Of a stretch of DNA of 64,000 nucleotides, positions 1,822-38,104 are shown one piece after another (the stretch's first letter is position 1; each line of letters opens with the position of its first letter). The stretch lies in sequence record MN850619.1; one strand, written 5' to 3'. Below the pieces are notes generated by a model, which made no database searches, was not told where the DNA came from, and saw nothing but the letters and a program-made list of their open reading frames with translations. Source of the DNA: Escherichia phage finno. Both the position numbers and the translations under genes were made by a program.

Positions 1822-1897
1822 TGGAGAATCCGAAGGGACTTGAACCCTTATAAACCTGTTTTGCAGACAGGCACATATCCATTTCTGTCACGGATTC
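1822..1897 (-). tRNA. tRNA-Cys (anticodon GCA), CCA encoded
   Basis: Reverse-complement T-arm AAGGG-ACTTGAA-CCCTT, acceptor GAATCCG/CGGATTC, anticodon stem CCTGT/ACAGG with loop giving GCA. Confidence 0.8.
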
Positions 1898-1901
1898 AAA
1901 T

Positions 1902-1994
1902 TGGAGGAAGATACCAGACTTGAACTGGTACACCGATTTCTCAGCTACTGGCAGTTTAGCAAACTGCTCCCTTACCTTTTAGGGTTAATCTTCC
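1902..1994 (-). tRNA. tRNA-Ser (anticodon GCU), class II with long variable arm
   Basis: T-arm ACCAG-ACTTGAA-CTGGT, acceptor GGAAGAT/ATCTTCC, anticodon stem GCAGT/ACTGC, 21-nt variable region, 93 nt with CCA. Confidence 0.8.
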
Positions 1995-1995
1995 A

Positions 1996-2730
1996 TTATT
2001 TCTGCAATGCGTTCTTCATTTCTGGTGTTGCAATAGTGTCGATTACACCAGTTTTACAAGCATCATCAAACCAGTCTGGTAAGATACCTGCTAAGAACCC
2101 ATTGATATTCGTTTTAAGGTACTCTGCAATAAGGGCGGCTTCTTCTTCAATCATCTGCACAACTTCATCTGCATAAGCTGTAATCTTTGAGATACCTTCA
2201 TTAATCTTACTAACAGCCTGATTAGCTAAATCAGAAACAGTATCAAGACCCTTATCAATAGCGTCTTGTAAGTCACTTAACACACCGTTAACACTGTCTA
2301 GTGTGCTGTTAATCATGTCAATAGCTTTTTGACCATACTCTGTAGCAACACCCATAATACCACTGAATGGTGTACAACCAACTTGTTCTCCTGCTGCACC
2401 CATAACATTGGAGTATCCCTTTGCTACCTGCATACGTGATGAAAACTCATCAATAGACTTTTGACCATAGTCTGTTAGGGTCTTAGTAGTTGCTGTAGTG
2501 CTTGTCAGGCTTGTTGTAAAGCTGTTTAGAAGGACTGTTGTAAGTCCAGCAGCAACAAGCTTCTCCTTCATTGTAGGGTCTGTTACAGAGCTAATAGAGC
2601 TTACAAGTGATGTAGAGGCAGCTACGGTTCCACCGAGAACTGCTGCACCAGTAATAAGTGGGTTAGAAAACCCTTTACCGGTTTTTAAGAGATTAAAAAT
2701 CTCCTTACCTTGTTCTGTCATCTCTTTCAT
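1996..2730 (-). CDS. Hypothetical Ala/Thr/Ser/Gly-rich protein inside the tRNA cluster
   Basis: ORF track 1996..2793; start trimmed to internal Met (MKEMTEQ...) because the annotated N-terminus overlaps tRNA-Phe; low-complexity T/S/A-rich core. Confidence 0.5.
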   Translation of the reverse strand: MKEMTEQGKEIFNLLKTGKGFSNPLITGAAVLGGTVAASTSLVSSISSVTDPTMKEKLVAAGLTTVLLNSFTTSLTSTTATTKTLTDYGQKSIDEFSSRMQVAKGYSNVMGAAGEQVGCTPFSGIMGVATEYGQKAIDMINSTLDSVNGVLSDLQDAIDKGLDTVSDLANQAVSKINEGISKITAYADEVVQMIEEEAALIAEYLKTNINGFLAGILPDWFDDACKTGVIDTIATPEMKNALQK

Positions 2731-2748
2731 TAAGCACCTTTGAAATTG

Positions 2749-2823
2749 GTAGTCCAGTGGGATTTGAACCCTCTTCTCATGTTTTTCAGACACGCGCTTT
2801 AACCATATAAGCTACTTGGACTA
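2749..2823 (-). tRNA. tRNA-Phe (anticodon GAA), tentative
   Basis: T-loop ATTTGAA, acceptor TAGTCCA/TGGACTA, anticodon loop gives CUGAAAA. Confidence 0.65.
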
Positions 2824-2828
2824 TAAAT

Positions 2829-2905
2829 TGGGGTGACCTACGGGATTTGAACCCGTATAGACCATGTTCACAGCATGGGTCATTACCATTTATGATAAGG
2901 CCACA
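2829..2905 (-). tRNA. tRNA-His (anticodon GUG) with extra 5' G(-1)
   Basis: T-arm ACGGG-ATTTGAA-CCCGT, anticodon stem CCATG/CATGG, loop gives GUG; extra 5' nucleotide consistent with His G-1. Confidence 0.8.
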
Positions 2906-2935
2906 TTTAAGGACTCTCGTAAGAACCCTTAGAAG

Positions 2936-3011
2936 TGGCAGCGGCATAAGGATTTGAACCTTAATAGGACAGCTTCAGAGACTGCTGCATTGCCAGTTAT
3001 GCTATACCGCT
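2936..3011 (-). tRNA. tRNA-Gln (anticodon CUG), tentative
   Basis: T-arm TAAGG-ATTTGAA-CCTTA, D-stem 4/4 pairs, U8/A14/G18G19/A21 present, anticodon loop CUCUGAA. Confidence 0.7.
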
Positions 3012-3016
3012 AAAAT

Positions 3017-3095
3017 TGGTGCTCCATATCGGATTCGAACCGATACATAACACAGATTTTAAGTCTGGCCTCTCTGCCAATTGGAGTAATGGAGC
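3017..3095 (-). tRNA. tRNA, anticodon region reads UAA (Leu-type) but class I length; assignment tentative
   Basis: T-arm ATCGG-ATTCGAA-CCGAT, perfect acceptor GCTCCAT/ATGGAGC, CCA encoded; anticodon loop CUUAAAA; short variable loop. Confidence 0.6.
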
Positions 3096-3097
3096 AT

Positions 3098-3173
3098 TGG
3101 CGGGGGATGTTGGAATTGAACCAACTTCTTCGATTTCAAAGACCGAGGTTTTAACCTTGTAAACTAATCCCCT
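3098..3173 (-). tRNA. tRNA-Gln (anticodon UUG)
   Basis: T-arm GTTGG-AATTGAA-CCAAC, D-stem 4/4, anticodon stem 5/5, loop CUUUGAA. Confidence 0.75.
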
Positions 3174-3181
3174 TTAAATCT

Positions 3182-3739
3182 TTACTTTCTCAGTGGATGA
3201 ATAAAGAATGCCAACATAACTCTTTCCCTTGAGAATGCTCTTTCTTCTGGGACAACACTTTTAAGTTTCCATCCAACATAAATTCTCCAGTAAAACTGTT
3301 TACCAAAGACTTTAATTGATGGGATAAAAGCGAATAATCCCCAAGCATTACTGTTCCACATTAGGAGATAACCAGTCTGATTATCTTCAGGGTTAGAACT
3401 TACGTTGATATTACCTTTCCACTTAGTAACATCTTTTACATCTCTTCCTAATACATGGTAAGAGAAGTTATAAGCTTTGTTTCTCCAGAGCCATCCAACT
3501 CTCTGCATGTAGACACCCAGCTTACCAATCTTTCTAATCTTAGCCCATCTTTTAACGTGGCCTTCATCACCATCAATCTGGTTGTCATAGGTCTCCATCC
3601 ATCTGAATCCAAAAGGTAAGTGTCCTTTCTTTTCACTGTAGAATGGAACTACGAAAGGTGCTAAGATGACTGCTAGGGTTGCTGCAAATGGTTCTAGTAA
3701 AGCTAGGAAAATCCATGAAGCATACTTCAAATATCTCAT
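3182..3739 (-). CDS. Hypothetical membrane protein embedded in tRNA cluster
   Basis: 185 aa ORF with hydrophobic N-terminus (WIFLALLEPFAATLAVILAPFVVPF), flanked by tRNAs without overlap. Confidence 0.5.
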   Translation of the reverse strand: MRYLKYASWIFLALLEPFAATLAVILAPFVVPFYSEKKGHLPFGFRWMETYDNQIDGDEGHVKRWAKIRKIGKLGVYMQRVGWLWRNKAYNFSYHVLGRDVKDVTKWKGNINVSSNPEDNQTGYLLMWNSNAWGLFAFIPSIKVFGKQFYWRIYVGWKLKSVVPEERAFSRERVMLAFFIHPLRK

Positions 3740-3758
3740 CTAAATAGCCTCTTAAAAT

Positions 3759-3836
3759 TGGTGTTCCAAGACGGATTCGAACCGTCACTAATACAAGGTT
3801 TGAGCTTGCATCCTCTGCCAATTGGGATACTGGAAC
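3759..3836 (-). tRNA. tRNA, anticodon region reads CAA (Leu-type) but class I length; tentative
   Basis: T-arm GACGG-ATTCGAA-CCGTC, acceptor GTTCCAA/CTGGAAC, anticodon loop CUCAAAC, 6-nt variable loop. Confidence 0.6.
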
Positions 3837-3837
3837 A

Positions 3838-3912
3838 TGGTACTCACTAAAGGACTTGAACCTTTTTCTTCATCTTGTAAGGGTGATGTTTTACCATATA
3901 AACTAAGCGAGT
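3838..3912 (-). tRNA. tRNA-Val (anticodon UAC), tentative
   Basis: T-arm AAAGG-ACTTGAA-CCTTT, acceptor pairs 7/7 with one G-U, anticodon loop CUUACAA. Confidence 0.65.
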
Positions 3913-4007
3913 GTGAAAGAGGTCTGAAGTTGTGCCGCTAACTCAACTCCGTGGAATTTGTTACGGTCTTCAGTTGACACCAGCGGTCTTTCACTTGACC
4001 TCTGAAT

Positions 4008-4084
4008 TGGTGCTGCTCACAGGACTCGAACCTGCATTTCCATCCTTACAAGGGATGTGTAATAGCCAATTATACGAAAGCAGC
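4008..4084 (-). tRNA. tRNA-Thr (anticodon UGU)
   Basis: T-arm ACAGG-ACTCGAA-CCTGC, perfect anticodon stem CATCC/GGATG, loop CUUGUAA. Confidence 0.8.
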
Positions 4085-4090
4085 ATTGTT

Positions 4091-4165
4091 TGGAGCATCC
4101 AGAGGGAATCGAACCCTCAACCTCAGTTTGGAAGACTGTAATTTTCCCGTTTAAACTATGGATGC
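4091..4165 (-). tRNA. tRNA-Gly (anticodon UCC)
   Basis: T-arm GAGGG-AATCGAA-CCCTC, perfect acceptor GCATCCA/TGGATGC, loop CUUCCAA. Confidence 0.75.
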
Positions 4166-4171
4166 GCTAAT

Positions 4172-4247
4172 TGGTGGAGTCACTGAGAATTGAACTCAGT
4201 TCCCAAGTTTGCAAAACTCGAATTTTAACCATATAAACTATGACCCC
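4172..4247 (-). tRNA. tRNA-Ala (anticodon UGC)
   Basis: T-arm CTGAG-AATTGAA-CTCAG, anticodon stem CAAGT/ACTCG, loop UUUGCAA. Confidence 0.8.
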
Positions 4248-4253
4248 AATGTC

Positions 4254-4329
4254 TGGTACAGGTGGAGGGAATTGAACCCGTCGTCTTACTGATTAAGAGT
4301 CAGCCGCATAACCATTTTGCTACACCTGC
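4254..4329 (-). tRNA. tRNA-Lys (anticodon CUU), tentative
   Basis: T-loop AATTGAA, acceptor ACAGGTG/CACCTGC, anticodon loop CUCUUAA; close paralog of the tRNA at 5569-5644. Confidence 0.65.
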
Positions 4330-4336
4330 ATTAATT

Positions 4337-4414
4337 TGGTAGGAGACAAGGGATTCGAACCCTCAAACATCTCGTTCTAAGCGAGATAGGTTTACCAATT
4401 ACCGTCAACCTCCC
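4337..4414 (-). tRNA. tRNA, anticodon region reads UAG (Leu-type) but class I length; tentative
   Basis: T-arm AAGGG-ATTCGAA-CCCTC, perfect anticodon stem TCTCG/CGAGA with loop CUUAGAA, acceptor pairs with three G-U. Confidence 0.6.
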
Positions 4415-4668
4415 ATTAAGTCTTTTTAGAGAACTTCTAAGAACCTAAGCAACAAGGTTCCACAACAAGCTGTAATAACCTTAGAAGCCCTCTAAAAAGA
4501 CCTAAAAAGGTCTTTGCATAGTCTTGTTTAATCCGGTGACTAGAACCTTTGGAGAGCTTGATATTATCTCTTCTCCGTGACACCTACTAGGTGCTTTATC
4601 AGTGTGTACGACAATACACGAGGGATACCAAAGCAACATCCGAATGAAGCTTGGCTTTAAATCTTATT

Positions 4669-4759
4669 AGGCGGTAAGTAAAGGAGTCGAACCCTCACCG
4701 TATCTCTACAGTGGCAACAGTTTTCAAGACTGTTTGGCTGCCATTAGCCGCTACCTACC
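4669..4759 (-). tRNA. tRNA-Ser (anticodon UGA), class II
   Basis: T-loop AGTCGAA, perfect anticodon stem ACAGT/ACTGT, loop CUUGAAA, about 20-nt variable arm; CCA apparently not encoded. Confidence 0.75.
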
Positions 4760-4772
4760 CCTAATAAGACTT

Positions 4773-4855
4773 TGGCATGGGACGGAGGAGTTGAACCCCT
4801 TTGAAACGGTTTTGGAGGCCGTTGCTCATGCCTTAGAGTCTTAACATCGTCCCAC
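4773..4855 (-). tRNA. tRNA (83 nt with CCA; anticodon not resolved)
   Basis: T-arm GGAGG-AGTTGAA-CCCCT and complementary acceptor ATGGGAC/GTCCCAC; the internal fold could not be resolved by eye. Confidence 0.5.
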
Positions 4856-4997
4856 ACTATAATTCGAAGCTCACCGTATTATCTCAACACTGTAAAGCCC
4901 CTTCTCAGATTATTTACATGTTCTGGAAAACATGAGATACAGACCACCTCCCTACAGGAAGACCCGCTTAGGTCGTCTAAGTAATCTGCTAACTAAT

Positions 4998-5074
4998 TGG
5001 CACACCCTACAGGATTCGAACCTGTAACTAACGATTTAGAAGACCGTTGCTCTATCCAATTGAACTAAGGGTGC
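4998..5074 (-). tRNA. tRNA-Arg (anticodon UCU)
   Basis: T-arm ACAGG-ATTCGAA-CCTGT, anticodon stem ACGAT/ACCGT, loop CUUCUAA. Confidence 0.8.
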
Positions 5075-5410
5075 ATTAATCTTTAAAAACTCTCTTAGAA
5101 AGCCCTTAAAGATGCCCACCTTATTAATCATACCGTGGGCGAGTACGCCAAATTCTTTGATGAGGGATTGGAAGACCTCACTGGTGTTTAGCCTATCAAG
5201 CTACTGCCAGAAAAACATTGTCGTTTGCATTTATTTTAAATTTGCAAAATAGACGCTACGCAACGAAAACTATTCAGAATATGTACAACAAATTTCCCCA
5301 CATTGTGTTACGTCTAACGCTCATGTATTGGTGTTTGAATTATACATATTATGAAGTATTTTAGTTACTATAAAGTAGTCACATCTCAATGTCAACAACT
5401 TTATTGAAAT

Positions 5411-5486
5411 TGGTACTGGTAGGTGGAATCGAACCACCGATGTTCCCTTATCAGGGGAGTGTTATAACCTTCTTAACTATACCAGC
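5411..5486 (-). tRNA. tRNA-Ile (anticodon GAU), tentative
   Basis: T-arm GGTGG-AATCGAA-CCACC, acceptor ACTGGTA/TACCAGC, loop CUGAUAA. Confidence 0.7.
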
Positions 5487-5487
5487 T

Positions 5488-5564
5488 TGGAGGTTCAGAT
5501 GGGAATCGAACCCACATTCATAGGGCTTATGAGACCCTTGCATTACCTTATCTGCGACTGAACC
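5488..5564 (-). tRNA. tRNA with CAU anticodon (Met, initiator or lysidine-Ile not distinguished)
   Basis: T-arm ATGGG-AATCGAA-CCCAC, perfect acceptor GGTTCAG/CTGAACC, loop CUCAUAA. Confidence 0.7.
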
Positions 5565-5568
5565 ATTT

Positions 5569-5644
5569 TGGTAGAAGTGGAGGGATTCGAACCCATCGCC
5601 TGTCAGATTAAAAGTCTGCCGCATCACCATTCTGCTACACTTCC
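5569..5644 (-). tRNA. tRNA-Lys (anticodon UUU), tentative
   Basis: Paralog of the tRNA at 4254-4329; loop CUUUUAA; acceptor AGAAGTG/CACTTCC. Confidence 0.7.
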
Positions 5645-5844
5645 ATTAAATTATCTTTGTAGATAAGCTACCCAGACTTGCTTAAGGTCTGTAGCGATGT
5701 GCCTTTTTGGGTTTAAATCTAGAATTTACCCTTTCACCCTTTGTGGTCGCATACTCACAGGTAAGCTTAATAACTTATCTACAAAGATAATTACCAGACC
5801 GTTGTTTATCATCTTAAGTGCTACCATTACACCAACTCGACCTC

Positions 5845-5920
5845 TGCCGAGTGAAGGAATCGAACCTTCCCATTTTCTTTACCGAGAAATAGATTGTTTA
5901 AGTTTTGCTGTAAACGGTCT
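5845..5920 (-). tRNA. tRNA-like element (canonical T-arm only); possibly degenerate
   Basis: T-arm GAAGG-AATCGAA-CCTTC is present but no complementary 5' acceptor or clean anticodon arm was found. Confidence 0.3.
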
Positions 5921-6075
5921 TCTGTAAATTTGTTGAGCCAGACCAAGTTTTAAATTTTTTCAAAATTGAATTGGCTTGAAAATATCATACGTACTTGCTG
6001 TATTTGGTCTTCTGCTCCTTTAAAGAATACTCGTAAGAACTCTTTAAGGGAGGGGCTAAATAGCCCTCTCAAAAT

Positions 6076-6154
6076 TGGCGGTTACGAAGGGATTTGAACC
6101 CTCATCATCTCCCGTGACAGGGGAGTATTTTAACCAAAATTAAACTACATAACC
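6076..6154 (-). tRNA. tRNA-Asp (anticodon GUC)
   Basis: T-arm AAGGG-ATTTGAA-CCCTC, perfect anticodon stem CTCCC/GGGAG, loop CUGUCAC. Confidence 0.8.
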
Positions 6155-6159
6155 TTTAT

Positions 6160-6247
6160 TGGTGTGCCGTGTAGGAGTCGAACCTACCGAGTCTCAATGA
6201 CAAGGGATTTACAGTCCCCACCGCTACCATCTACGGGATAACGACAC
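6160..6247 (-). tRNA. tRNA-Tyr (anticodon GUA), class II
   Basis: T-arm GTAGG-AGTCGAA-CCTAC, 15-nt variable arm, anticodon stem AGGGA/TCCCC, loop CUGUAAA. Confidence 0.75.
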
Positions 6248-6316
6248 ATTTAATTTCTATTCAGGCTAAGGACTTGCACCTTACAAATCGGTGAGCAATC
6301 GCTTCTCTCCTAAATT

Positions 6317-6393
6317 TGGCGGTTAGTCAGGGATTCGAACCCTGTGCCATTCGCTTAACAGGCGACCGCACATACCTTATGTGCTTCCTAACC
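6317..6393 (-). tRNA. tRNA-Asn (anticodon GUU)
   Basis: T-arm CAGGG-ATTCGAA-CCCTG, loop CUGUUAA. Confidence 0.75.
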
Positions 6394-6476
6394 ATGTTTA
6401 GTATTACCAGACCGTATCTTTCAATTTTTCCGCTAAAAATTTAATAAATATTGCTGTAAACGGTCTTCTGTAAATT

Positions 6477-6553
6477 TGGAGGCGGGTGCAGGAGTCGAAC
6501 CTGCCGATACCATGCTAATGAGACATGTGAGACGCCCTTTCTCTATACCCGCA
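6477..6553 (-). tRNA. Second tRNA with CAU anticodon (Met/fMet/Ile2 not distinguished)
   Basis: T-arm GCAGG-AGTCGAA-CCTGC, anticodon stem CATGC/ACATG, loop CUCAUUA; apparent U1-C72 mismatch. Confidence 0.6.
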
Positions 6554-6644
6554 ATTCTTAATGACCAGACCAAATCTCTTCTTTGTCCGATTTACCTTCA
6601 GATGAATAAGATTAAGTTTGCTGTAATTGGTCTTCTGTCAAAAC

Positions 6645-6722
6645 TGGCGTTCCAGAAGGGATTTGAACCCTCAGATATCCACTTTGAAAGAGTGGTGACT
6701 TTACCATTTTGTCTACTGGAAC
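6645..6722 (-). tRNA. tRNA-Glu (anticodon UUC)
   Basis: T-arm AAGGG-ATTTGAA-CCCTC, perfect acceptor GTTCCAG/CTGGAAC, perfect anticodon stem CCACT/AGTGG, loop CUUUCAA. Confidence 0.8.
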
Positions 6723-6729
6723 ATTAATT

Positions 6730-6806
6730 TGGTCTCTGTTGGAGGACTTGAACCTCCGGCCTTACCGCCCCAAACGGAACGCTCTACCAAGCTGAGCTAA
6801 ACAGAG
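6730..6806 (-). tRNA. tRNA-Pro (anticodon UGG)
   Basis: T-arm GGAGG-ACTTGAA-CCTCC, perfect acceptor and D-stem, loop UUUGGGG with G37. Confidence 0.8.
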
Positions 6807-30712: not shown

Positions 30713-33079
30713 TTAATCGTAAACTGTAGTCCCTTCTGGAACACATTTTACATCAAAGCCTAAGAACTTACTCACTTCAATAGGTGACACTTTATTCCAA
30801 TCTAAATGGGAAAGCAAGAAGTTTTCTTGTTTTCTTTTTGAAAGGTAGTTTGTCACCTTGATAACCATACGGTCACCAGCTTTCTTAATTTTCTTGTACA
30901 GTTTTGTATCATTGTCAAGGCATTCTTTCAAAGTTTGCAATCTACTAATAGTGTAAGTATATGCAAATGGTGCAGCAACATACTGGATTTTACCGAAAAT
31001 TGCCTCTACAGCCTCTTCGTTACCTTCTAGGAAGATAGTTTTGCTAGTATCTCGTGAGTAGCAATAACCACGAGAAATCTTCCTGTTATTGAATGTAAAG
31101 TTTCTGGCAATAATCCAACTGCTTGTAAGGTCAAGAACACCATTCATGTAGGTGCGTGTCATGTACCTGTTATGATTAATCCAATGAACATCAGTTAAGC
31201 TGTCGTTCAAGAGCTTCTCATCTACTTCAATCCAGTCTTCTGGTATCTTTTTCCAATTTGCTTTTCGGAAAACATAGACTGTCTTTCCAATAACATTAGC
31301 AACTGACTTAGCTACATCTTCTGGAGATGAGCAAAAGCATTCGCCATCAACTGTGTCACCTACTGCCTTAATGTAAAGCTGGGGTTCTTCAATTGTGTCT
31401 AAGTCTTCTGACACCTCTTTGTAGGAGGCTACACCTTCTGCTGGAACAGCTTTCCAGAGTTTTACAACACCTCTTACAGCTTCTTTACGCTGGTAATGGT
31501 GTTCCTTATCAGACATTTTCACAATCTTTAACAAGCTTTTATCAAGTTTGTGTAGATTGATTAAATCATCTAAATCTTTTTCAGTCGAGAATACAAACAC
31601 AATGCCATTGTATCTGTGAAACAGGCTTGACTCGTTGGCGTAGTCTCGACATGCACCACGCAGAATCTGATTGCGGCCTACAGTCTTCTCAGTACCGTTT
31701 TTATTGCGACGGTCATTAATAACAAACAAAAACTGTTCAATTTGGCTTTTACGCATTGCGCCAAAGATATTGAACATACTTGCCTCTTGAGTGTAGGAAA
31801 GTGCTGTTGCACGAATCTTACTCTCTAAAGAGTTGAACTTGACATAAGCAACTGGATTATAAAGATAATCTACTTTAGGGATATTGTTCCCGTTTCTATC
31901 AACCTTAATATTACCTTTGCCGTCACGTTCATAAATGACTGAGCCGTCTTCTGCGTAGATAATCCCACGACGAATGTTTAGTAATTCTTCTTCCAGAGTA
32001 TCAAGTTTAACACCACCCCACTCTAGCTTTGGACACACAGCATTAAACATTTCTCGTGAGTTCAAACGTAACTCTGCATAAGCCTGTGCAGCATCCATGA
32101 GTGTAGGTTGGCTATTAACTTTCTTGATAACATCCTTTGTAATTGCTTCAGTTATCTTTTTAGTAGCCTCAATGATAACATTTTTTGTCGTATCATTCAT
32201 CTGCAATGCTTCACGAGAAGCTGCAATAGCAACTGAACCAATAGGCATGTAAATGTTTACAAGGTCTACGCTCCTACGGAAAAACTCTGGCAAGACTTTG
32301 AAGAAATCATCACCAAGTAATGCTTCCATATTAACTGGATAGGCAATATTACCCATCACCACATTAAACTCTGTCCTGTTGCCACTAGAACGCCAGCTTT
32401 GCTTATGAATCATAGCATCATAAACACCCTCTTCACGGGCAATGACGTTCATATCTGCTAACACATCATCATATACAATATTGCTTTCTGGTTTTACAGC
32501 AAAGTATGAATATACGTGACCAGCCTCTTCAAAGAACTTTGAAATACGGTGGTCAGCAACTGCTACACGTACAGCTAAACCATTGGGTTCATTTGTTGGG
32601 TTAGTAGTAAGTTTAGTTACTTGAGGGATACCATTCTCAAGGTAAACAGAGTACTTATTAACAACACCATCAACATAACTAGATACTGTGAATGACTGAG
32701 CAATTGCAAATGGGGATTTTGAGCCGATACCCATTGCACCAATGTAATCATTAGAGTCATTCTTCGTAGAAGCCCCATAGTTCAGATACAAACTCATTAC
32801 TTTGTCATGGGTTAAACCAGTTCCAAAGTCACGGACTTCAAAGTAAGGCTCAAATCGAGTAGGTAAATGCACATGGAACGGGATGTTCTCTTTTCCAGCT
32901 TCTTTCTGAGCATCTACTGCATTACATGACAGTTCACGAATCACTGCCCTTTCTTTAAATGTGTATACACCAGAACTCAAAAGGCTGAACATTTCAGGTG
33001 TCATTGTAATCTGTGCTTGAGATGTCTCCAAAGAAGTTGAACTCTTAATCACTTCTGCGTGGTCATTTACCATGCGCAT
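30713..33079 (-). CDS. rIIA: rIIA-like protein (N-terminal GHKL-type ATPase fold)
   Basis: 788 aa; FKERAVIRELSCNAVDA...VRDFGTGL...NDYIGAMGIGSKSPF aligns by eye with the T4 rIIA N-terminus. Confidence 0.85.
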   Translation of the reverse strand: MRMVNDHAEVIKSSTSLETSQAQITMTPEMFSLLSSGVYTFKERAVIRELSCNAVDAQKEAGKENIPFHVHLPTRFEPYFEVRDFGTGLTHDKVMSLYLNYGASTKNDSNDYIGAMGIGSKSPFAIAQSFTVSSYVDGVVNKYSVYLENGIPQVTKLTTNPTNEPNGLAVRVAVADHRISKFFEEAGHVYSYFAVKPESNIVYDDVLADMNVIAREEGVYDAMIHKQSWRSSGNRTEFNVVMGNIAYPVNMEALLGDDFFKVLPEFFRRSVDLVNIYMPIGSVAIAASREALQMNDTTKNVIIEATKKITEAITKDVIKKVNSQPTLMDAAQAYAELRLNSREMFNAVCPKLEWGGVKLDTLEEELLNIRRGIIYAEDGSVIYERDGKGNIKVDRNGNNIPKVDYLYNPVAYVKFNSLESKIRATALSYTQEASMFNIFGAMRKSQIEQFLFVINDRRNKNGTEKTVGRNQILRGACRDYANESSLFHRYNGIVFVFSTEKDLDDLINLHKLDKSLLKIVKMSDKEHHYQRKEAVRGVVKLWKAVPAEGVASYKEVSEDLDTIEEPQLYIKAVGDTVDGECFCSSPEDVAKSVANVIGKTVYVFRKANWKKIPEDWIEVDEKLLNDSLTDVHWINHNRYMTRTYMNGVLDLTSSWIIARNFTFNNRKISRGYCYSRDTSKTIFLEGNEEAVEAIFGKIQYVAAPFAYTYTISRLQTLKECLDNDTKLYKKIKKAGDRMVIKVTNYLSKRKQENFLLSHLDWNKVSPIEVSKFLGFDVKCVPEGTTVYD

Positions 33080-33107
33080 AATACTTTCCTCTTAGTTTAC
33101 TGTTAAA

Positions 33108-33284
33108 TTACTTATTAAACATTTTACCAGAACCACCACAAATAGGGCAACAGCCTGCTCTTGTATACCCTTCCCCGTTGCAGTAATCACACTTCTTGCA
33201 CTCTGCATAGTACTTGCAAAGAAGGTAAACAAATACTGCTACACTACCAAGTGACAGTAAAATTTCTATCCAATATGCTTGCAT
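33108..33284 (-). CDS. Hypothetical small membrane protein with zinc-ribbon C-terminus (58 aa)
   Basis: Hand translation MQAYWIEILLSLGSVAVFVYLLCKYYAECKKCDYCNGEGYTRAGCCPICGGSGKMFNK. Confidence 0.4.
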   Translation of the reverse strand: MQAYWIEILLSLGSVAVFVYLLCKYYAECKKCDYCNGEGYTRAGCCPICGGSGKMFNK

Positions 33285-33601
33285 GACTCACCTCTCATAT
33301 TTTTGTAAAGGATAAAGCTTCTGTCATGAACGATACTTGTAGATACTGCAAAGTTACTTTCAAGCATCTGTTTATTTGGATTGTAGAAGCTTTCTTTAAA
33401 CTCGTCAAGAGCAAACTGGTGATGTTGTGGAAGACCTTTTACGCAAACCTTTATTGTAATTGCTGCTGCAACCTTACCCGTCAGTTCTTCTTTAGCTGCT
33501 ACTAAAATTTTGTTAAGGAACTTTTTACCATCTTCAGGTTTCTTAATATTCTCCCAACGTTCTTCTAGGACAACGTTAATGTTCATTTCTTTGATTTTCA
33601 T
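33266..33601 (-). CDS. Hypothetical protein
   Basis: 111 aa ORF. Confidence 0.5.
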   Translation of the reverse strand: MKIKEMNINVVLEERWENIKKPEDGKKFLNKILVAAKEELTGKVAAAITIKVCVKGLPQHHQFALDEFKESFYNPNKQMLESNFAVSTSIVHDRSFILYKNMRGESCKHIG

Positions 33602-33611
33602 AATCTTCTCC

Positions 33612-33640
33612 AGAAATTAAAAAGGCTCCCGTAGGAGCCT
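33612..33640 (-). terminator. Rho-independent terminator after the NAMPT-like gene
   Basis: Minus-sense AGGCTCCTACGGGAGCCT followed by TTTTAATTTCT. Confidence 0.6.
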
Positions 33641-33654
33641 CTTATCATATACTT

Positions 33655-35436
33655 TTAAAGCTGCTTGTCAATATTATTTCGAATATCACCAAGAGTTGTG
33701 TAACCGAACTGCTCAGAGTCACTAAAGACTAAACGTAAAGCACAAGCTGGGTGGTCAAGTACATCTGCAAAACTCTGGAATCCATAGCCATCTACAGCTT
33801 TCAGCTTATCACCATCCCACATAGGTGCTACACCACCAAAGGCAGATTTCTTAACACCACTATCTGTTTTAGGGTCTTTTGCAAGCATAATCTCTTTACC
33901 ACCAATGCTTGCAAGAGTTGCTTTGACAGCAAATGCAAAGGTGTCACGAGTCATGTACTGGTAAGTGTAAGAACCTACGCCAAACACCACGTTAGAGCTT
34001 GCAAAACCCATTTCATACAGACGCTTCAGGATTTCGTTTGCACGTTCCAGTGTGATAGAGTCACCATAGATAAGGCCGATATGCTCGTCCAGTACCTTAA
34101 ATCCTTTAGAGTTAATAGTTCCCCCAAAGATGTTGTACAGTGTCTTAATAGCTCCATCAATCTCAGCTACAGGACGTGTTACAACGTTTGCAGAGCCAAC
34201 CATATAAGCATTTTTCAACATCACTGTATCAGCAACTTCAAAGTCTTCTCGGTCAACAACCATTTCGTAGCCTTCTGACAGTAGCCATCCAGCAATACCA
34301 TAGCTGATGTTTTCAAGCTTCATGTTCAGAACAGCATTCAGCATTGTGTCACTGGCTTCCAGCTTGCTTAGGTGCTCGTAATAAGCCTTTTTAGCACACT
34401 CTAAGTGGATTGCTTTATAACCTGTGACAATATGTACAGGGTCTCCAGAGTCAGGACGAATTACCAGTTTACCGTCACGTTCCATAATTTCTTTACGAAG
34501 TGCTGGTAAGATTTCTGACACAGTTCTCCAGAAGTTATAAGTGTCTGAAACAATACTTGCAATACCAGTTGGGTAAGTTTCTGTTAAGAAACGACGGAAG
34601 GTTTGTAACTCACCTTTAAATCGTCTTTCTTCTTCAACCAACTCGTTACCACCTTCCCAAGCAATGTTTGCACACATTACAGAGTGTTCAGTGGCTGGTA
34701 CAGAGCTTCCAATATCAGAGATTGGATAGGTCTGCCCATAGATACGTTTAGCCGTGTATACAGCAGGGAAGCTATCAGTCCCTTTAAAGCTGGTTAAGTG
34801 TCCTACAGCGTTGAATGCGTCATCAGTAAAGCCGGACATACCACGCATAGCAAAGTCATGGCACTGATAAGGTAAATGCAAGTCGTTGTCGCAAGTGAGG
34901 TCAGCCCACTTCTTACAGATACGTTTGTAGTGCAATGCAATAGTTGCAATGGTGCAAGCCTTCCAAATCTCAGCAGAGAAAGCGTCTTCTAGATAACCTG
35001 CTACCCAATGGAAACCTGAAACAGTGTTCTGGAAGACAATCATTGGAACACGCATAGGAACAACTGTACCTTCTTCTACAGCGTATACTTCAACTGGTAG
35101 ATAGCCTAAATCGTGAAGTGCTTCCCAATGCTCTCGACCGATAGCATCTTTACCCAGAACACCATTCATGACTTCTAAGATTTCGTCAACTGCTCCTTTT
35201 TTATCACGTTCAAAGAAAGTGGCGTTCCAGTGGTCTATCAAGTAATCTTTAACAAAACGTTGAATACCAAAAGCTACTACACCATCAATTGCTAAGGGGC
35301 TGTTAAACCATTTGTCGCTACGTGGTGTCAGGTTGAACATCAAGTAATCTGTTGCACTGGGGTATTGGTAAACATGGCCAGATTTGTAAGCGTCCGCGTT
35401 TAAACCTGCTGGTACTGCATAAAGTGATTTAGTCAT
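33655..35436 (-). CDS. nadV: Nicotinamide phosphoribosyltransferase family protein (NadV/NAMPT-like; possibly the Namat-type nicotinamide ADPR transferase of a NAD+ reconstitution pathway)
   Basis: 593 aa; NADAYKSGH, VPATEHSVM, VSDTYN, IRPDSGDP, GDSI and FGVGSYTYQYMTRDT match conserved NAMPT motifs; ~100-aa insertion relative to canonical NAMPT. Confidence 0.8.
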   Translation of the reverse strand: MTKSLYAVPAGLNADAYKSGHVYQYPSATDYLMFNLTPRSDKWFNSPLAIDGVVAFGIQRFVKDYLIDHWNATFFERDKKGAVDEILEVMNGVLGKDAIGREHWEALHDLGYLPVEVYAVEEGTVVPMRVPMIVFQNTVSGFHWVAGYLEDAFSAEIWKACTIATIALHYKRICKKWADLTCDNDLHLPYQCHDFAMRGMSGFTDDAFNAVGHLTSFKGTDSFPAVYTAKRIYGQTYPISDIGSSVPATEHSVMCANIAWEGGNELVEEERRFKGELQTFRRFLTETYPTGIASIVSDTYNFWRTVSEILPALRKEIMERDGKLVIRPDSGDPVHIVTGYKAIHLECAKKAYYEHLSKLEASDTMLNAVLNMKLENISYGIAGWLLSEGYEMVVDREDFEVADTVMLKNAYMVGSANVVTRPVAEIDGAIKTLYNIFGGTINSKGFKVLDEHIGLIYGDSITLERANEILKRLYEMGFASSNVVFGVGSYTYQYMTRDTFAFAVKATLASIGGKEIMLAKDPKTDSGVKKSAFGGVAPMWDGDKLKAVDGYGFQSFADVLDHPACALRLVFSDSEQFGYTTLGDIRNNIDKQL

Positions 35437-35481
35437 CTTTTAATCTCTCTCAAAATGGGGCTTTCAAGCCCCTATAAAGTT

Positions 35482-36363
35482 TCAATCAATGGTTGCTACA
35501 GTAACTTGGGCGTAATGTGTTAAGCCACGGTCTTTAGCTTCACCTAAAGAGTTTGTAGTGTAGATATGGTCAATACCATTGTCAAGTAAGTTTTCAACAC
35601 CTTTAGAGAAAATACCATGAGTTACATAGAGTTCCACACGTTTTGCACCTGCTTCACGGAGATGTTTCGCTGCTTCTATGAAGGTTCGACCACCATCACA
35701 GATATCATCCAGAATCATGACGGTTTTATCTGTCAAATCAGCATCGTCAAGGATTCGCATACCAGTGATTTCTCCCGTCTTAAGATTGCGCACTTTAGAC
35801 ATTGTGATGTATGGTTTATCCACCTCTTTAGCAGTCTCTGCAATCTTCTTAGCAGCACCTGCATCTGGGGCTACTAAGTAATCAATTAGAGGGTCATTTG
35901 CATAGTGAACTGCAATTTCCTTTTGAGGAATACTCTGGAAGCAGTTAAACAGGTTATCTGGTACATAGCTGTGAGGGTCAACTGCACAGACTGCATCAAA
36001 ACCCATTGCATTAACCTGTTGTGCAAACACTTTCAAAGCTGCTGCATCACCTTTAAACATGTGACGGTCGTAACGTGCATTTGGCAAATAGTAAAAGATA
36101 GCAGTCTTCATAGCAAACTTATGGGGTACTAAATCGTCAATTGCTTCTTTAGCAAGTGCCACAGCAAATAATGTGTCTTTGTCATAACCCTTTACAATCA
36201 TAATCACGTTGTTGATGGATGATGCTGCATAAGCAGTAAAATCAACAAGCTCTTGTGAAAAGTGTCCACCAATCTCACCAGAAGGGAACTGGATGATGTT
36301 AAACTCTTCTTCATGAGACCCTTTTGTCGGTGAATGAATTATAACACGAATAGATGTTTTCAT
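35482..36363 (-). CDS. prs: Ribose-phosphate pyrophosphokinase (PRPP synthetase) family protein (Prs-like; possibly the Adps-type ADPR-pyrophosphate synthetase)
   Basis: Start trimmed to the ATG at 36361-36363 (track start is TTG); FPSGE, YLPNARYDR, VDPHS and ILDDICDGGRT match Prs motifs. Confidence 0.75.
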   Translation of the reverse strand: MKTSIRVIIHSPTKGSHEEEFNIIQFPSGEIGGHFSQELVDFTAYAASSINNVIMIVKGYDKDTLFAVALAKEAIDDLVPHKFAMKTAIFYYLPNARYDRHMFKGDAAALKVFAQQVNAMGFDAVCAVDPHSYVPDNLFNCFQSIPQKEIAVHYANDPLIDYLVAPDAGAAKKIAETAKEVDKPYITMSKVRNLKTGEITGMRILDDADLTDKTVMILDDICDGGRTFIEAAKHLREAGAKRVELYVTHGIFSKGVENLLDNGIDHIYTTNSLGEAKDRGLTHYAQVTVATID

Positions 36364-36377
36364 AGTTTTCTCTCTCT

Positions 36378-36785
36378 TTATTCCCAAATAACCTTTCTAC
36401 GCTTTATCTGGATAATGTTCTTTTTACAATATTCGATAGCTTCATCTATTGACCCAAAACTTTCCTTCTCCACAAAGAAGCGAACTTCACCATCTTGTAT
36501 CTTTTGTTCTTCGGCTGTTGGCTCTTCAAGTATTTTACTTGATACTTCTCTGTTAATCTGCATTACATACTCGAAAGAGTTCTTCTTGTATCCAACTATT
36601 TTAATGTAACCCCTCTGGCGAAGACGATTGAACCGAGTTGACTTGTTTGTCTTGGATACATCTGGAAATTCCTTGTCATGGATACTACGTATCTGTGAGC
36701 AAGTAAATGTTTTATCATAGCCAAACTCATTATACAGGACTTTTAACAGTTCAATCATAACATCACTCCCAAATAACTTTTGCAT
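36378..36785 (-). CDS. Hypothetical protein, paralog family A (copy 2)
   Basis: Start trimmed to MQKLFGS by homology with 37249..37671; shared C-terminus EAIEYCKKNIIQIKRRKVIWE. Confidence 0.55.
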   Translation of the reverse strand: MQKLFGSDVMIELLKVLYNEFGYDKTFTCSQIRSIHDKEFPDVSKTNKSTRFNRLRQRGYIKIVGYKKNSFEYVMQINREVSSKILEEPTAEEQKIQDGEVRFFVEKESFGSIDEAIEYCKKNIIQIKRRKVIWE

Positions 36786-37227
36786 GTTTAACTTTAATAA
36801 GATGCTCTTTGCAGTGCTCAATAGCTTCATCTAGTGTTTTAAACATAACATCCGCGATAAAGTATCTTACGTCAGGTTGTACATCAACATCTTTAACCTC
36901 AGATAAGTTTGATTTTTGTGAACTCCCCAACTCTTCACGCGTGTTATCTAGCATCCTTGACAGTTGTATGTGCTTCTCCATAAAGGCTCGATTTAATTGA
37001 TTAATACTTAGTCTACCTTTGCTTTTTACCTGCCCTACAGTCAGTAGTACACCAGACTGTCTTAACATTGTTAGATACCCACGGGTATTACTGATTGACT
37101 GGCCTCGTATAAAAAGGCTATTCTCTCTTAATGCGTCAATTGCTTCGTTAGAGTCAAAAGTGTTTTCTGTCCCGAAGGTTTTGTATAAAATCTCTATTAC
37201 GTGCTTCTGTAAATTGCAAAAAATCAT
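36763..37227 (-). CDS. Hypothetical protein, paralog family B (copy 2)
   Basis: 154 aa; MIFCNLQKHVIEILYKTFGTENTFDSNEAI...EHCKEHLIKVKHAKVIWE; overlaps the downstream A-type start by 23 nt. Confidence 0.55.
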   Translation of the reverse strand: MIFCNLQKHVIEILYKTFGTENTFDSNEAIDALRENSLFIRGQSISNTRGYLTMLRQSGVLLTVGQVKSKGRLSINQLNRAFMEKHIQLSRMLDNTREELGSSQKSNLSEVKDVDVQPDVRYFIADVMFKTLDEAIEHCKEHLIKVKHAKVIWE

Positions 37228-37248
37228 AGTGTATTCCTAATCAAATGT

Positions 37249-37671
37249 TTAAACTTCTTCCCAAACAATACGCTTTCTTTTTGTTTGGATAACCGTCCTC
37301 TTACAATGCTCAACTGCTGCCTCCATACTGGTAAAGTGTATGTCACCTATGAAGTACCCTACTTCACCTACACTGACCTCTTCATCCTTTTGTTGATAGT
37401 CATTACAATTTAAAAGCACATTTTTAGCTTTGCTTTCATTGATTCTCATAAGATACTCATTATTAAATCCTGTCGCTCCAACAACACTAATGTACCCACT
37501 TTTACGTAATCTGTGAGACCAATTAGCTTTATCCCTGATTGAAGCATGTGGTAGATATTTATTAAAAACCTTAGTTAGTTGTGAGCCAGAAAATGTTTTA
37601 TCATAGCCAAAATTTATATACAGAACCTTCAGAAGCTCAAACATGTTATTACTCCCAAATAATTTTTGCAC
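37249..37671 (-). CDS. Hypothetical protein, paralog family A (copy 1)
   Basis: 140 aa; MQKLFGSNNMFELLKVLYINFGYDKTF...VEHCKRTVIQTKRKRIVWE. Confidence 0.55.
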   Translation of the reverse strand: MQKLFGSNNMFELLKVLYINFGYDKTFSGSQLTKVFNKYLPHASIRDKANWSHRLRKSGYISVVGATGFNNEYLMRINESKAKNVLLNCNDYQQKDEEVSVGEVGYFIGDIHFTSMEAAVEHCKRTVIQTKRKRIVWEEV

Positions 37672-38104
37672 GTTTTACTTTGATAATATACTTTTTGCAG
37701 TGTTCAACAGCATCTTGGAGTGTATCAAACATCAACTCACCAATAAAGAATTTTATGTCTGGAGACACACCTACACCACCACTTAAGTCTTTTTGCTGCT
37801 CTTCACGTTGGTTTCGTGGCTCTTTAAGTAAATAGTCTAGCTGAATGTGCTTCTCAATAAAACCTCTATTTAATTGGTTGATGAGCATCCTCCCTTGTTG
37901 CTTAATCTGTCCTACCACGATGAGCACACCCCACTTTCTCATCTGAGTCAAGTAGTACCTGATGTTTGCTATTGGCTGTTTTTTGATGTAATCACTTCCT
38001 TCTTGTAGGGCTTCAATAGCTTCATTTGAGTCAAATGTGTTATCTGTCCCAAACTTATTGTATAGAATCTCAATAATTCTTTTTTGGAAGCTGCAAAAAA
38101 TCAT
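37649..38104 (-). CDS. Hypothetical protein, paralog family B (copy 1)
   Basis: 151 aa; MIFCSFQKRIIEILYNKFGTDNTFDSNEAI...EHCKKYIIKVKRAKIIWE; overlaps the downstream A-type start by 23 nt. Confidence 0.55.
   Translation of the reverse strand: MIFCSFQKRIIEILYNKFGTDNTFDSNEAIEALQEGSDYIKKQPIANIRYYLTQMRKWGVLIVVGQIKQQGRMLINQLNRGFIEKHIQLDYLLKEPRNQREEQQKDLSGGVGVSPDIKFFIGELMFDTLQDAVEHCKKYIIKVKRAKIIWE

Follow-up and report, generated by a model that had tools for sequence, protein, structure and literature searches.

A probable NARP1 operon for NAD+ reconstitution in Escherichia phage finno

Positions 33655-36363 of the window (the whole stretch of 64,000 nucleotides of Escherichia phage finno that was analysed, sequence record MN850619.1) carry two adjacent genes which, judged by their sequences, very probably constitute the NAD+ reconstitution pathway 1 (NARP1) operon of a Felixounavirus. 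The first, adps, would encode a Prs-like ADPR-pyrophosphate synthetase (Adps), the second, namat, a Nampt-like nicotinamide ADPR transferase (Namat). An earlier note, based on the letters alone, had proposed an Adps/Namat module here, and the proposal is supported by orthology to genes 79-80 of phage Bas63 and by clamp motifs specific to Namat.

In the proposed mechanism, a host defence of the SIR2, TIR or SEFIR type would split NAD+ into ADP-ribose and nicotinamide. Adps would use ATP to convert the ADP-ribose into ADPR-PP, pyrophosphorylating its free ribose. Namat, which would combine a Nampt-like catalytic core with an adenine-binding clamp favouring ADPR-PP over PRPP, would then exchange the pyrophosphate of ADPR-PP for nicotinamide and thus yield NAD+ directly. 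The phage would escape NAD-depletion immunity without the host enzymes that convert NMN to NAD.

Gene order and relation to Bas63

Two non-overlapping ORFs, for proteins of 593 and 293 aa, exactly fill 33655-36363, confirming the earlier note as to adjacency and a shared strand, which is the minus strand. Since both genes lie on that strand, the Prs-like gene is upstream and the NAMPT-like gene second (36363..35482, then 35436..33655, with a 45-nt spacer), the reverse of the order first given; this is the NARP1 architecture, and the order is that of Bas63. The adps start was placed at the ATG at 36363 (293 aa), and an alternative TTG at 36387 would give 301 aa. The pair had also been described as bracketed by terminators, which holds on one side: a clear intrinsic terminator lies 3' of namat, but none was found on the upstream side of adps, where the preceding ORF ends 14 nt before the adps ATG. 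The spacer contains a hairpin with a 6-bp GC stem (fold of the 45-nt spacer, -12.6 kcal/mol), an identical copy of which occurs in Bas63; it is possibly a leaky terminator or an RNA stability element.

Table 1. Features of the adps-namat region, in window coordinates
Feature	Positions	Strand	Basis or value
adps, Prs-like ADPR-pyrophosphate synthetase (putative), 293 aa, operon gene 1	35482..36363	-	ORF, Bas63_0079 identity, phrog_619
Adps Lys190, equivalent of SPbetaL1 Adps catalytic K162	35794..35796	-	pairwise mapping, translation
GC hairpin GGGGCUugaaAGCCCC followed by AUUUUG, within the adps-namat spacer	35457..35472	-	sequence, spacer fold
namat, Nampt-like nicotinamide ADPR transferase (putative), 593 aa, operon gene 2	33655..35436	-	ORF, Bas63_0080 identity, PDB matches
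Namat selectivity-clamp loop (SCL), S40-D41-K42-W43	35308..35319	-	mapping, translation
Smaller variable Namat insertion, residues 257-275, NIAWEGGNELVEEERRFKG	34612..34668	-	alignments, translation
85-aa inserted alpha/beta subdomain of Namat, residues 343-427	34156..34410	-	typical of Ounavirinae-type Namat
Namat selectivity-clamp helix (SCH) motif GSYTYQYMTRD, residues 488-498	33943..33975	-	published motif definition, sequence
Intrinsic terminator after namat, 10-bp stem and UUUUU	33620..33643	-	-16.6 kcal/mol, z -3.3

The window is a Felixounavirus (FelixO1-like) sequence. It aligns collinearly, with nucleotide identities of 90-97%, to Escherichia phage JohannRWettstein (Bas63, MZ501086.1). 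The Bas63 NARP1 operon (bas63_0079, adps; bas63_0080, namat) shares with it the genus, the gene order, the lengths of 293 and 593 aa, the 45-nt spacer and the flanking synteny, and Bas63 Namat carries the same two insertions and both clamp elements. The Namat proteins are identical at 585 of 593 positions (99%), the Adps proteins at 234 of 293 (80%, aligned over the full 293 aa). Within Adps the N-terminal ~100 residues belong to different alleles, the first ~100 codons showing 59-67% nucleotide identity, while the C-terminal two thirds are ~90% identical. The allele in the window is the commoner one among Felixounaviruses, and Osterman et al. list it among Adps homologs in their Suppl. Table 1, flagged as Namat-associated (bioRxiv 10.1101/2024.02.11.579819). 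In two further respects the window departs from Bas63: an inserted 1.8-kb cassette (36378-38104), made up of four paralogs, lies immediately upstream of adps, and a homolog of bas63_0081, the gene downstream of namat, is missing.

It was deletion of this Bas63 operon that defined NARP1 as Adps plus Namat, the mutant giving ~20-fold fewer plaques on cells with SIR2-HerA (Osterman et al., bioRxiv 10.1101/2024.02.11.579819). NAD+ levels were restored in cells infected with the NARP1-bearing phage. Because the Bas63 proteins "did not purify well", enzymology in vitro was carried out on homologs only (SPbetaL1, DyoEdafos and Paenibacillus), and the Bas63 activity itself is known in vivo through metabolites only; clamp mutants were likewise studied in the SPbetaL1 homologs. 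Some 4% of sequenced phages are reported to carry NARP1, and a Namat structure has been solved. We infer that the Adps of the window, its divergent N-terminal allele included, and its Namat would share the activities described for Bas63 and SPbetaL1.

Signatures of Namat and Adps

The earlier note had left a classical NadV/Prs pair as an alternative, from which the module is clearly set apart by its orthology to Bas63 genes 79-80, by the deletion phenotype and the ADPR-PP reported for those genes, and by the Namat clamp motifs. By family models the NAMPT-like protein is a member of Pfam NAPRTase/NAMPT_N, of NF006629 (467 bits; cut-off 405) and of phrog_448, 'nicotinamide phosphoribosyl transferase' (1e-200). 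Among PDB sequences its best match is Namat (9w5w/9w5x; 9e-128, 430 bits), above Haemophilus ducreyi NadV (HdNadV; 351 bits), Xanthomonas Nampt (Xcc Nampt; 181 bits, 3e-52) and human NAMPT (~138 bits, ~1e-39). A fold search with an AF2 model (pLDDT 93.4) agreed with this ranking, the top match being Namat 9w5x (TM 0.95).

In a pairwise mapping, each residue by which SPbetaL1 Namat contacts nicotinamide, NMN or AMP was conserved or conservatively replaced. These residues include the Nampt-like catalytic core, i.e. the nicotinamide sandwich, the catalytic His and the equivalents of Arg306/Asp308 (D15, Y17, F195, R198, D221, H251, R327, D329), as well as G458-D459, G488-S489 and T496-R497-D498. 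The type II phosphoribosyltransferase fold and the His/Arg/Asp core are shared with canonical Nampt/NadV enzymes (HdNadV, 9KE8; Xcc Nampt, 7YQO; human NAMPT), which, unlike the window protein, lack aromatics at SCH positions 3 and 7 and the stacking residue of the SCL. Thus, where the window has Tyr490 and Tyr494, HdNadV (GAQTYQRNTRD) has Gln and Arg, and Xcc Nampt (GGALLQKVDRD) has Ala and Lys. NARP1 SCLs are defined by Arg, Lys or Tyr at the third position together with a stacking residue; the window Namat has Lys at the third position and Trp as the fourth, adenine-stacking residue, identical to Bas63 Namat, for which Lys at position three and a Trp stacking on adenine were published. With Tyr490, Tyr494 and Lys42/Trp43 in place, the pocket entrance does not resemble that of a Nampt free of adenine-stacking residues. 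At the sequence level, SCH and SCL of the window protein match the published Namat signature; those of HdNadV and Xcc Nampt do not.

The Prs-like protein is recognised by Pfam Pribosyltran/Pribosyl_synth, by TIGR01251 and by phrog_619, 'ribose-phosphate pyrophosphokinase' (1e-98). TIGR01251, a broad subfamily model, is the only Prs model that it passes (122 vs 113 bits); it falls short of all the Prs equivalog cut-offs (NF002095, 103 vs 296; NF002320, 91 vs 297; NF003428, 57 vs 536). With E. coli Prs it shares the PRPP-synthetase fold and the DD..D.GG.T loop, but identity is 25%, and Prs has N- and C-terminal segments absent from Adps. In a small pairwise comparison that separates the groups weakly, the protein has better scores with catalogued Adps proteins than with E. 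coli Prs. Its Lys190 sits in TMSKVRN, at the position of the catalytic lysine of SPbetaL1 Adps, the K162A mutant of which is inactive. From the pairwise scores, the HMM cut-offs and the published tree and table, we place the protein in the Adps clade and not with housekeeping Prs, an assignment that derives mainly from the published tree.

The NARP1 operon of the Bacillus phage SPbetaL1 (Adps WIT26982.1, Namat WIT26983.1; crystal structures of Namat, 9W5W/9W5X; NAR 2026, PMC12774641) resembles that of the window in its two-gene architecture, in the fold and the catalytic and ligand-contact residues of Namat, and in the class of its SCH motif (GSFTYQYNTRD vs GSYTYQYMTRD), although identity is only 47% for Namat and 33% for Adps. 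The SPbetaL1 clamp loop uses Arg40 directly, in place of the Lys42/Trp43 of the window, and SPbetaL1 Namat, at 491 aa, has neither the 85-aa subdomain of the window protein nor its 19-aa loop.

Competing readings and related pathways

In classical salvage, the PRPP that Prs forms from ribose-5-phosphate would be joined with nicotinamide by NadV/Nampt to give NMN, and NAD+ synthesis would be completed by the host's NadR/PncC. We regard this as a very improbable account of the finno genes. Pfam, NCBIfam and PHROG all name the proteins in this sense, over 200 records of related phages are annotated accordingly, and the TIGR01251 score also points to salvage. In addition, Namat homologs retain PRPP-dependent NMN synthesis in vitro, so some classical activity may persist. 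However, the Bas63 ortholog overcame SIR2-HerA even in a pncC nadR double-deletion host, where the deletion phenotype was kept, and it was ADPR-PP and not the NMN route that was seen for Bas63 (bioRxiv 10.1101/2024.02.11.579819). Moreover, SPbetaL1 Adps formed no Prs product, and the failed Prs equivalog cut-offs and the aromatic clamp, absent from canonical Nampt and NadV, likewise argue against salvage.

Still less probable, to the point of being hardly tenable, is either a pathway of the NARP2 type, which pairs Nampt with Nmnat, or a role apart from immunity, in which the genes would boost the general supply of nucleotides or PRPP to phage DNA synthesis. Phage Nampt genes do occur in NARP2, and the Bas63 map has nucleotide-metabolism genes around the operon (nrdA/B/D/G, thymidylate synthase, DHFR), but the partner gene is Prs-like, no Nmnat match was found in the flanking ORFs and none is annotated over record positions 1-64000 (of 87100) of Bas63, the collinear part, the table of Osterman et al. 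classes Bas63 Namat as 'Adps-associated', and Bas63 showed its deletion phenotype on SIR2-HerA cells, with ADPR-PP detected only for the wild-type phage in those cells and absent from control cells infected with the same phage (bioRxiv 10.1101/2024.02.11.579819).

The NARP1 reading also allows comparison with extended operons. In NARP1-AP the addition is Adpp, a phosphatase with a Macro domain (10.64898/2026.01.28.702374), and in another extended form it is RyDEP (PMC13232231); both have the adps and namat core of the window, with additional genes within the operon or next to it. The ORFs that flank the window operon yielded neither a Macro nor a RyR-type domain. For NARP1-AP, defined by a Macro gene within two genes, seven flanking ORFs gave no Macro match at Pfam E <= 0.01, a search at Pfam sensitivity whereas the NARP1-AP paper used HHpred-level sensitivity.

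Accessory elements and implications

Alignments of the window Namat with SPbetaL1 Namat and with human, mouse and Xanthomonas Nampt break at ~343-427 and ~257-275. The insertion of ~100 aa that had been noticed at the outset is therefore real, and consists of a folded 85-aa subdomain and a loop of ~19 aa. Its reading as a sign of altered substrate use did not survive: we rejected the insertion as a determinant of ADPR-PP use because SPbetaL1 Namat, the biochemically characterised enzyme, prefers ADPR-PP and has no such insertion; across the clamp-bearing Namat clade, moreover, insertions range in length from 19 to 97 residues. No fold relative of the 85-aa subdomain was detectable. It might serve in regulation of the enzyme, in docking of Adps or as a shield against a host counter-measure.

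Next to adps, and not separated from it by a terminator, lies a rare cassette of two genes in duplicate, all four being phrog_29478 paralogs. Its occurrence in the phage collection is confined to Ounavirinae, and it lies directly upstream of adps both in the window and in Citrobacter phage Mordin, the two positions that were read. The paralogs have no Pfam match, and their profile gave a non-significant resemblance of a C-terminal motif to NCK SH2 domains among PDB sequences (E 0.05), and 14 clusters only, all unannotated, among 5.8 billion proteins. The cassette might be an accessory to the operon, comparable to Adpp or RyDEP. We consider it unlikely, though less so than the competing pathways above, that either the Namat subdomain or the cassette is a functional extension of NARP1; both are undescribed in the NARP1 literature examined, and they are the two small leads that the analysis offers.

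NARP1 itself is already known, having been discovered in the same genus and in a phage nearly identical to the window, and the operon adds nothing new to its biology; a tool-free reading of the raw sequence had nevertheless picked out a real anti-defence module. There is a gain for annotation, since Prs and NadV are still the names of these genes in over 200 GenBank records of related phages. As to host range, with no Macro/Adpp detected in the flanks, published data lead us to expect that finno probably remains sensitive to aRES-type NAD+ cleavage, and it should resist NAD depletion of the SIR2, TIR and SEFIR types.

Organization of the adps-namat gene pair

The interval 33655-36363 is filled exactly by two non-overlapping minus-strand ORFs. 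The earlier note had correctly placed two co-oriented neighbors here, but with the NAMPT-like gene first; given their minus-strand orientation, the Prs-like gene (adps, for ADPR-pyrophosphate synthetase, Adps) is transcribed before the NAMPT-like gene (namat, for nicotinamide ADPR transferase, Namat). An alternative adps start, TTG at 36387, lies further upstream and would yield 301 aa; the ATG is favored by a Shine-Dalgarno-like stretch, GAGAGAGA, and by a length matching the orthologs.

Coordinates of the gene pair and associated signals
Feature	Position (nt)	Strand	Description
adps	36363 (ATG) to 35482	-	293 aa, ORF listing
namat	35436 to 33655	-	593 aa, ORF listing
Intrinsic terminator after namat	33643..33620		10-bp stem + U run; -16.6 kcal/mol, z -3.3
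Spacer GC hairpin + AUUUUG	35457-35472		adps-namat spacer; identical in Bas63

Pfam, NCBIfam and PHROG profiles bore out the proposed family assignments: Namat matched NAPRTase and NAMPT_N (Pfam), NCBIfam NF006629 (467 bits, cut-off 405) and phrog_448 (1e-200), while Adps matched Pribosyltran, Pribosyl_synth, TIGR01251 and phrog_619 (1e-98). A further profile, phrog_12872 (547 positions), was matched by Adps over positions 39-224 and by Namat over 236-534; as it spans both, it implies fused Adps-Namat proteins in some phages, and an 843-aa homolog (P0064) may be another such fusion.

Contrary to the earlier suggestion, terminators do not flank the pair on both sides. A strong terminator follows the second gene, the 45-nt spacer carries a hairpin (6-bp GC stem, then AUUUUG), and no terminator-like structure was found 5' of adps, where the preceding ORF stops 14 nt before the start codon. 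The spacer element may act as a leaky terminator or a processing site, setting how much Adps is expressed relative to Namat.

Orthology to the Bas63 NARP1 operon

Escherichia phage JohannRWettstein (Bas63; MZ501086.1; Ounavirinae, Felixounavirus) aligns collinearly with the entire window in the opposite orientation, at 90-97% identity. The counterparts of adps and namat are bas63_0079 (293 aa, annotated 'ribose-phosphate pyrophosphokinase'; 234/293 residues identical) and bas63_0080 (593 aa, annotated 'nicotinamide phosphoribosyltransferase'; 585/593 identical), separated by the same 45-nt spacer. Megablast of 33000-37000 returned 258 phage records, nearly all Felixounavirus-type, with Escherichia, Salmonella, Shigella and Citrobacter hosts and vB_EcoM_ESCO49 as top match (96%). 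Elsewhere in the window, 25 tRNA genes cluster at 1822-6806 (minus strand).

While other parts of the operon are 88-99% identical to Bas63, the 5' ~300 nt of adps (36064-36363) are 59-67% identical and form a mosaic boundary. Between the two phages, 77 codon differences in adps are synonymous and 59 are non-synonymous; for namat the figures are 65 and 8. The Adps N-terminal region comes in two alleles among Felixounaviruses, the window carrying the commoner one: tblastn with window Adps found 153 records at ≥90% identity and 73 in the 60-80% band, Bas63-like Adps proteins scoring 77-80%. Both alleles keep the ATP-/ribose-site motifs FPSGE, ARYDR, DPHS and DDICDGGRT. Bas63 lacks the 1.8-kb block directly upstream of adps, and just downstream of namat it has a 345-nt hypothetical gene, bas63_0081, without a homolog in the window, where the flanks are joined directly (~33599-33602).

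Bas63 genes 79-80 constitute the operon where NARP1 (NAD+ reconstitution pathway 1 of phages; Adps plus Namat) was first found (Osterman et al., bioRxiv 10.1101/2024.02.11.579819), and we therefore regard the NARP1 reading as settled. Their deletion lowered plating on SIR2-HerA cells ~20-fold, wild-type Bas63 overcame SIR2-HerA even in a pncC nadR double-deletion host, and only the combination of wild-type Bas63 and defense gave rise to ADPR-PP (m/z 720.010) and its cyclic-phosphate breakdown product (10.1101/2024.02.11.579819). As the Bas63 proteins purified poorly, the enzymology was taken from homologs. Adps of Bacillus phage SPbetaL1 pyrophosphorylates ADPR, with no Prs product, and NARP1 was catalogued in 859 phage genomes (10.1101/2024.02.11.579819). 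SPbetaL1 Namat converts ADPR-PP and nicotinamide to NAD+, preferring ADPR-PP over PRPP; K162A in SPbetaL1 Adps and R306G in SPbetaL1 Namat each abolish the pathway.

Adps and Namat signatures

Window Adps falls far under every Prs equivalog threshold and scores higher with catalogued Adps proteins than with E. coli Prs, the margin being small for distant Adps. Its Lys190 aligns with SPbetaL1 K162, and the published Adps homolog table includes proteins of the window allele type (MKTSIRVIIHSPTKGSHEEEF...), flagged as Namat-associated.

Namat is distinguished from Nampt by an adenine 'selectivity clamp', comprising a helix motif (GS-X-Phi-X-Phi-X-Phi-TRD, with positions 3 and 7 aromatic) together with a loop (Arg, or Lys/Tyr then a stacking residue), as described in a 2026 structural paper (PMC12774641). 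Window Namat bears the helix motif at residues 488-498 (GSYTYQYMTRD) and the loop S40-D41-K42-W43, whereas the helix columns read GAQTYQRNTRD in canonical Haemophilus ducreyi NadV, which has Glu in place of K42, and GGALLQKVDRD in Xanthomonas Nampt. All nicotinamide-, NMN- and AMP-contacting residues of SPbetaL1 Namat are conserved or replaced conservatively. A PDB sequence search ranked Namat (9W5W/9W5X, 9e-128) above HdNadV (1e-103), Xcc Nampt (3e-52) and mammalian NAMPT (~1e-39). Likewise, the closest superposition of the AlphaFold2 model (pLDDT 93.4, pTM 0.91) was with the crystal structures of Namat (TM 0.95 on target), HdNadV and NAMPT coming behind.

A classical Prs/NadV salvage pair would match the database annotation of both genes, but the Bas63 genetics and metabolomics contradict it, as do the Namat clamp and the Prs cut-offs that Adps fails. 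The NAD+ reconstitution reading of the earlier note is correct. Residual PRPP-dependent NMN synthesis by Namat is possible as a side activity. NARP2 (Nampt plus Nmnat) is excluded, since the neighboring gene does not encode an Nmnat.

Namat insertions, homologs in bacterial contigs and the upstream cassette

The ~100-aa insertion noticed earlier in the NAMPT-like protein is real, comprising 85 aa (343-427) and ~19 aa (257-275) relative to SPbetaL1 Namat and canonical Nampt. Its proposed link to altered substrate use did not hold: a role as ADPR-PP determinant is ruled out, as SPbetaL1 Namat prefers ADPR-PP without it. The larger segment spans 19 to 97 residues among 33 clamp-bearing homologs, long forms being typical of Ounavirinae-like phages. 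Residues 343-427 are predicted to form a compact α/β subdomain (pLDDT >90 in context, 88 alone), of which we found no discussion in the NARP1 discovery or Namat structure papers; it is a remaining curiosity and a lead only.

Homologs of 496 aa (P0067, P0072, P0074, P0086 and others; 40-48% identity) occur in megabase-size contigs from Klebsiella, Cronobacter, Phytobacter, Kluyvera and Erwinia. A Namat-type helix motif, GS[YF]TYQYNTRD, is present in 4/4 aligned 496-aa homologs (P0067, P0072, P0086, P0066). Those in megabase-size contigs probably represent NARP1 copies of bacterial or prophage origin; such copies were reported in Paenibacillus (PMC12774641).

Directly upstream of adps, with no intervening terminator, lie four tandem paralogous ORFs (36378-38104, minus strand; 151, 140, 154 and 150 aa; phrog_29478). 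Within the 1.8-kb block they form a two-gene unit that is duplicated, with a period of ~880 bp. They have no Pfam match, and the similarity of their C-terminal motif to NCK SH2 domains is weak and non-significant (E 0.05). Among 50,697 phage records the cassette is present in 15, each from Ounavirinae, in 2 or 4 copies, and only 14 matching protein clusters turned up among 5.8 billion proteins. Its position in Citrobacter phage Mordin, the single record checked for this, is again immediately upstream of adps. The cassette likewise remains a curiosity, to be taken as a lead only. The gene pair itself is the ortholog of the founding example of the published NARP1 pathway; the finding is real and, by that orthology, already known.
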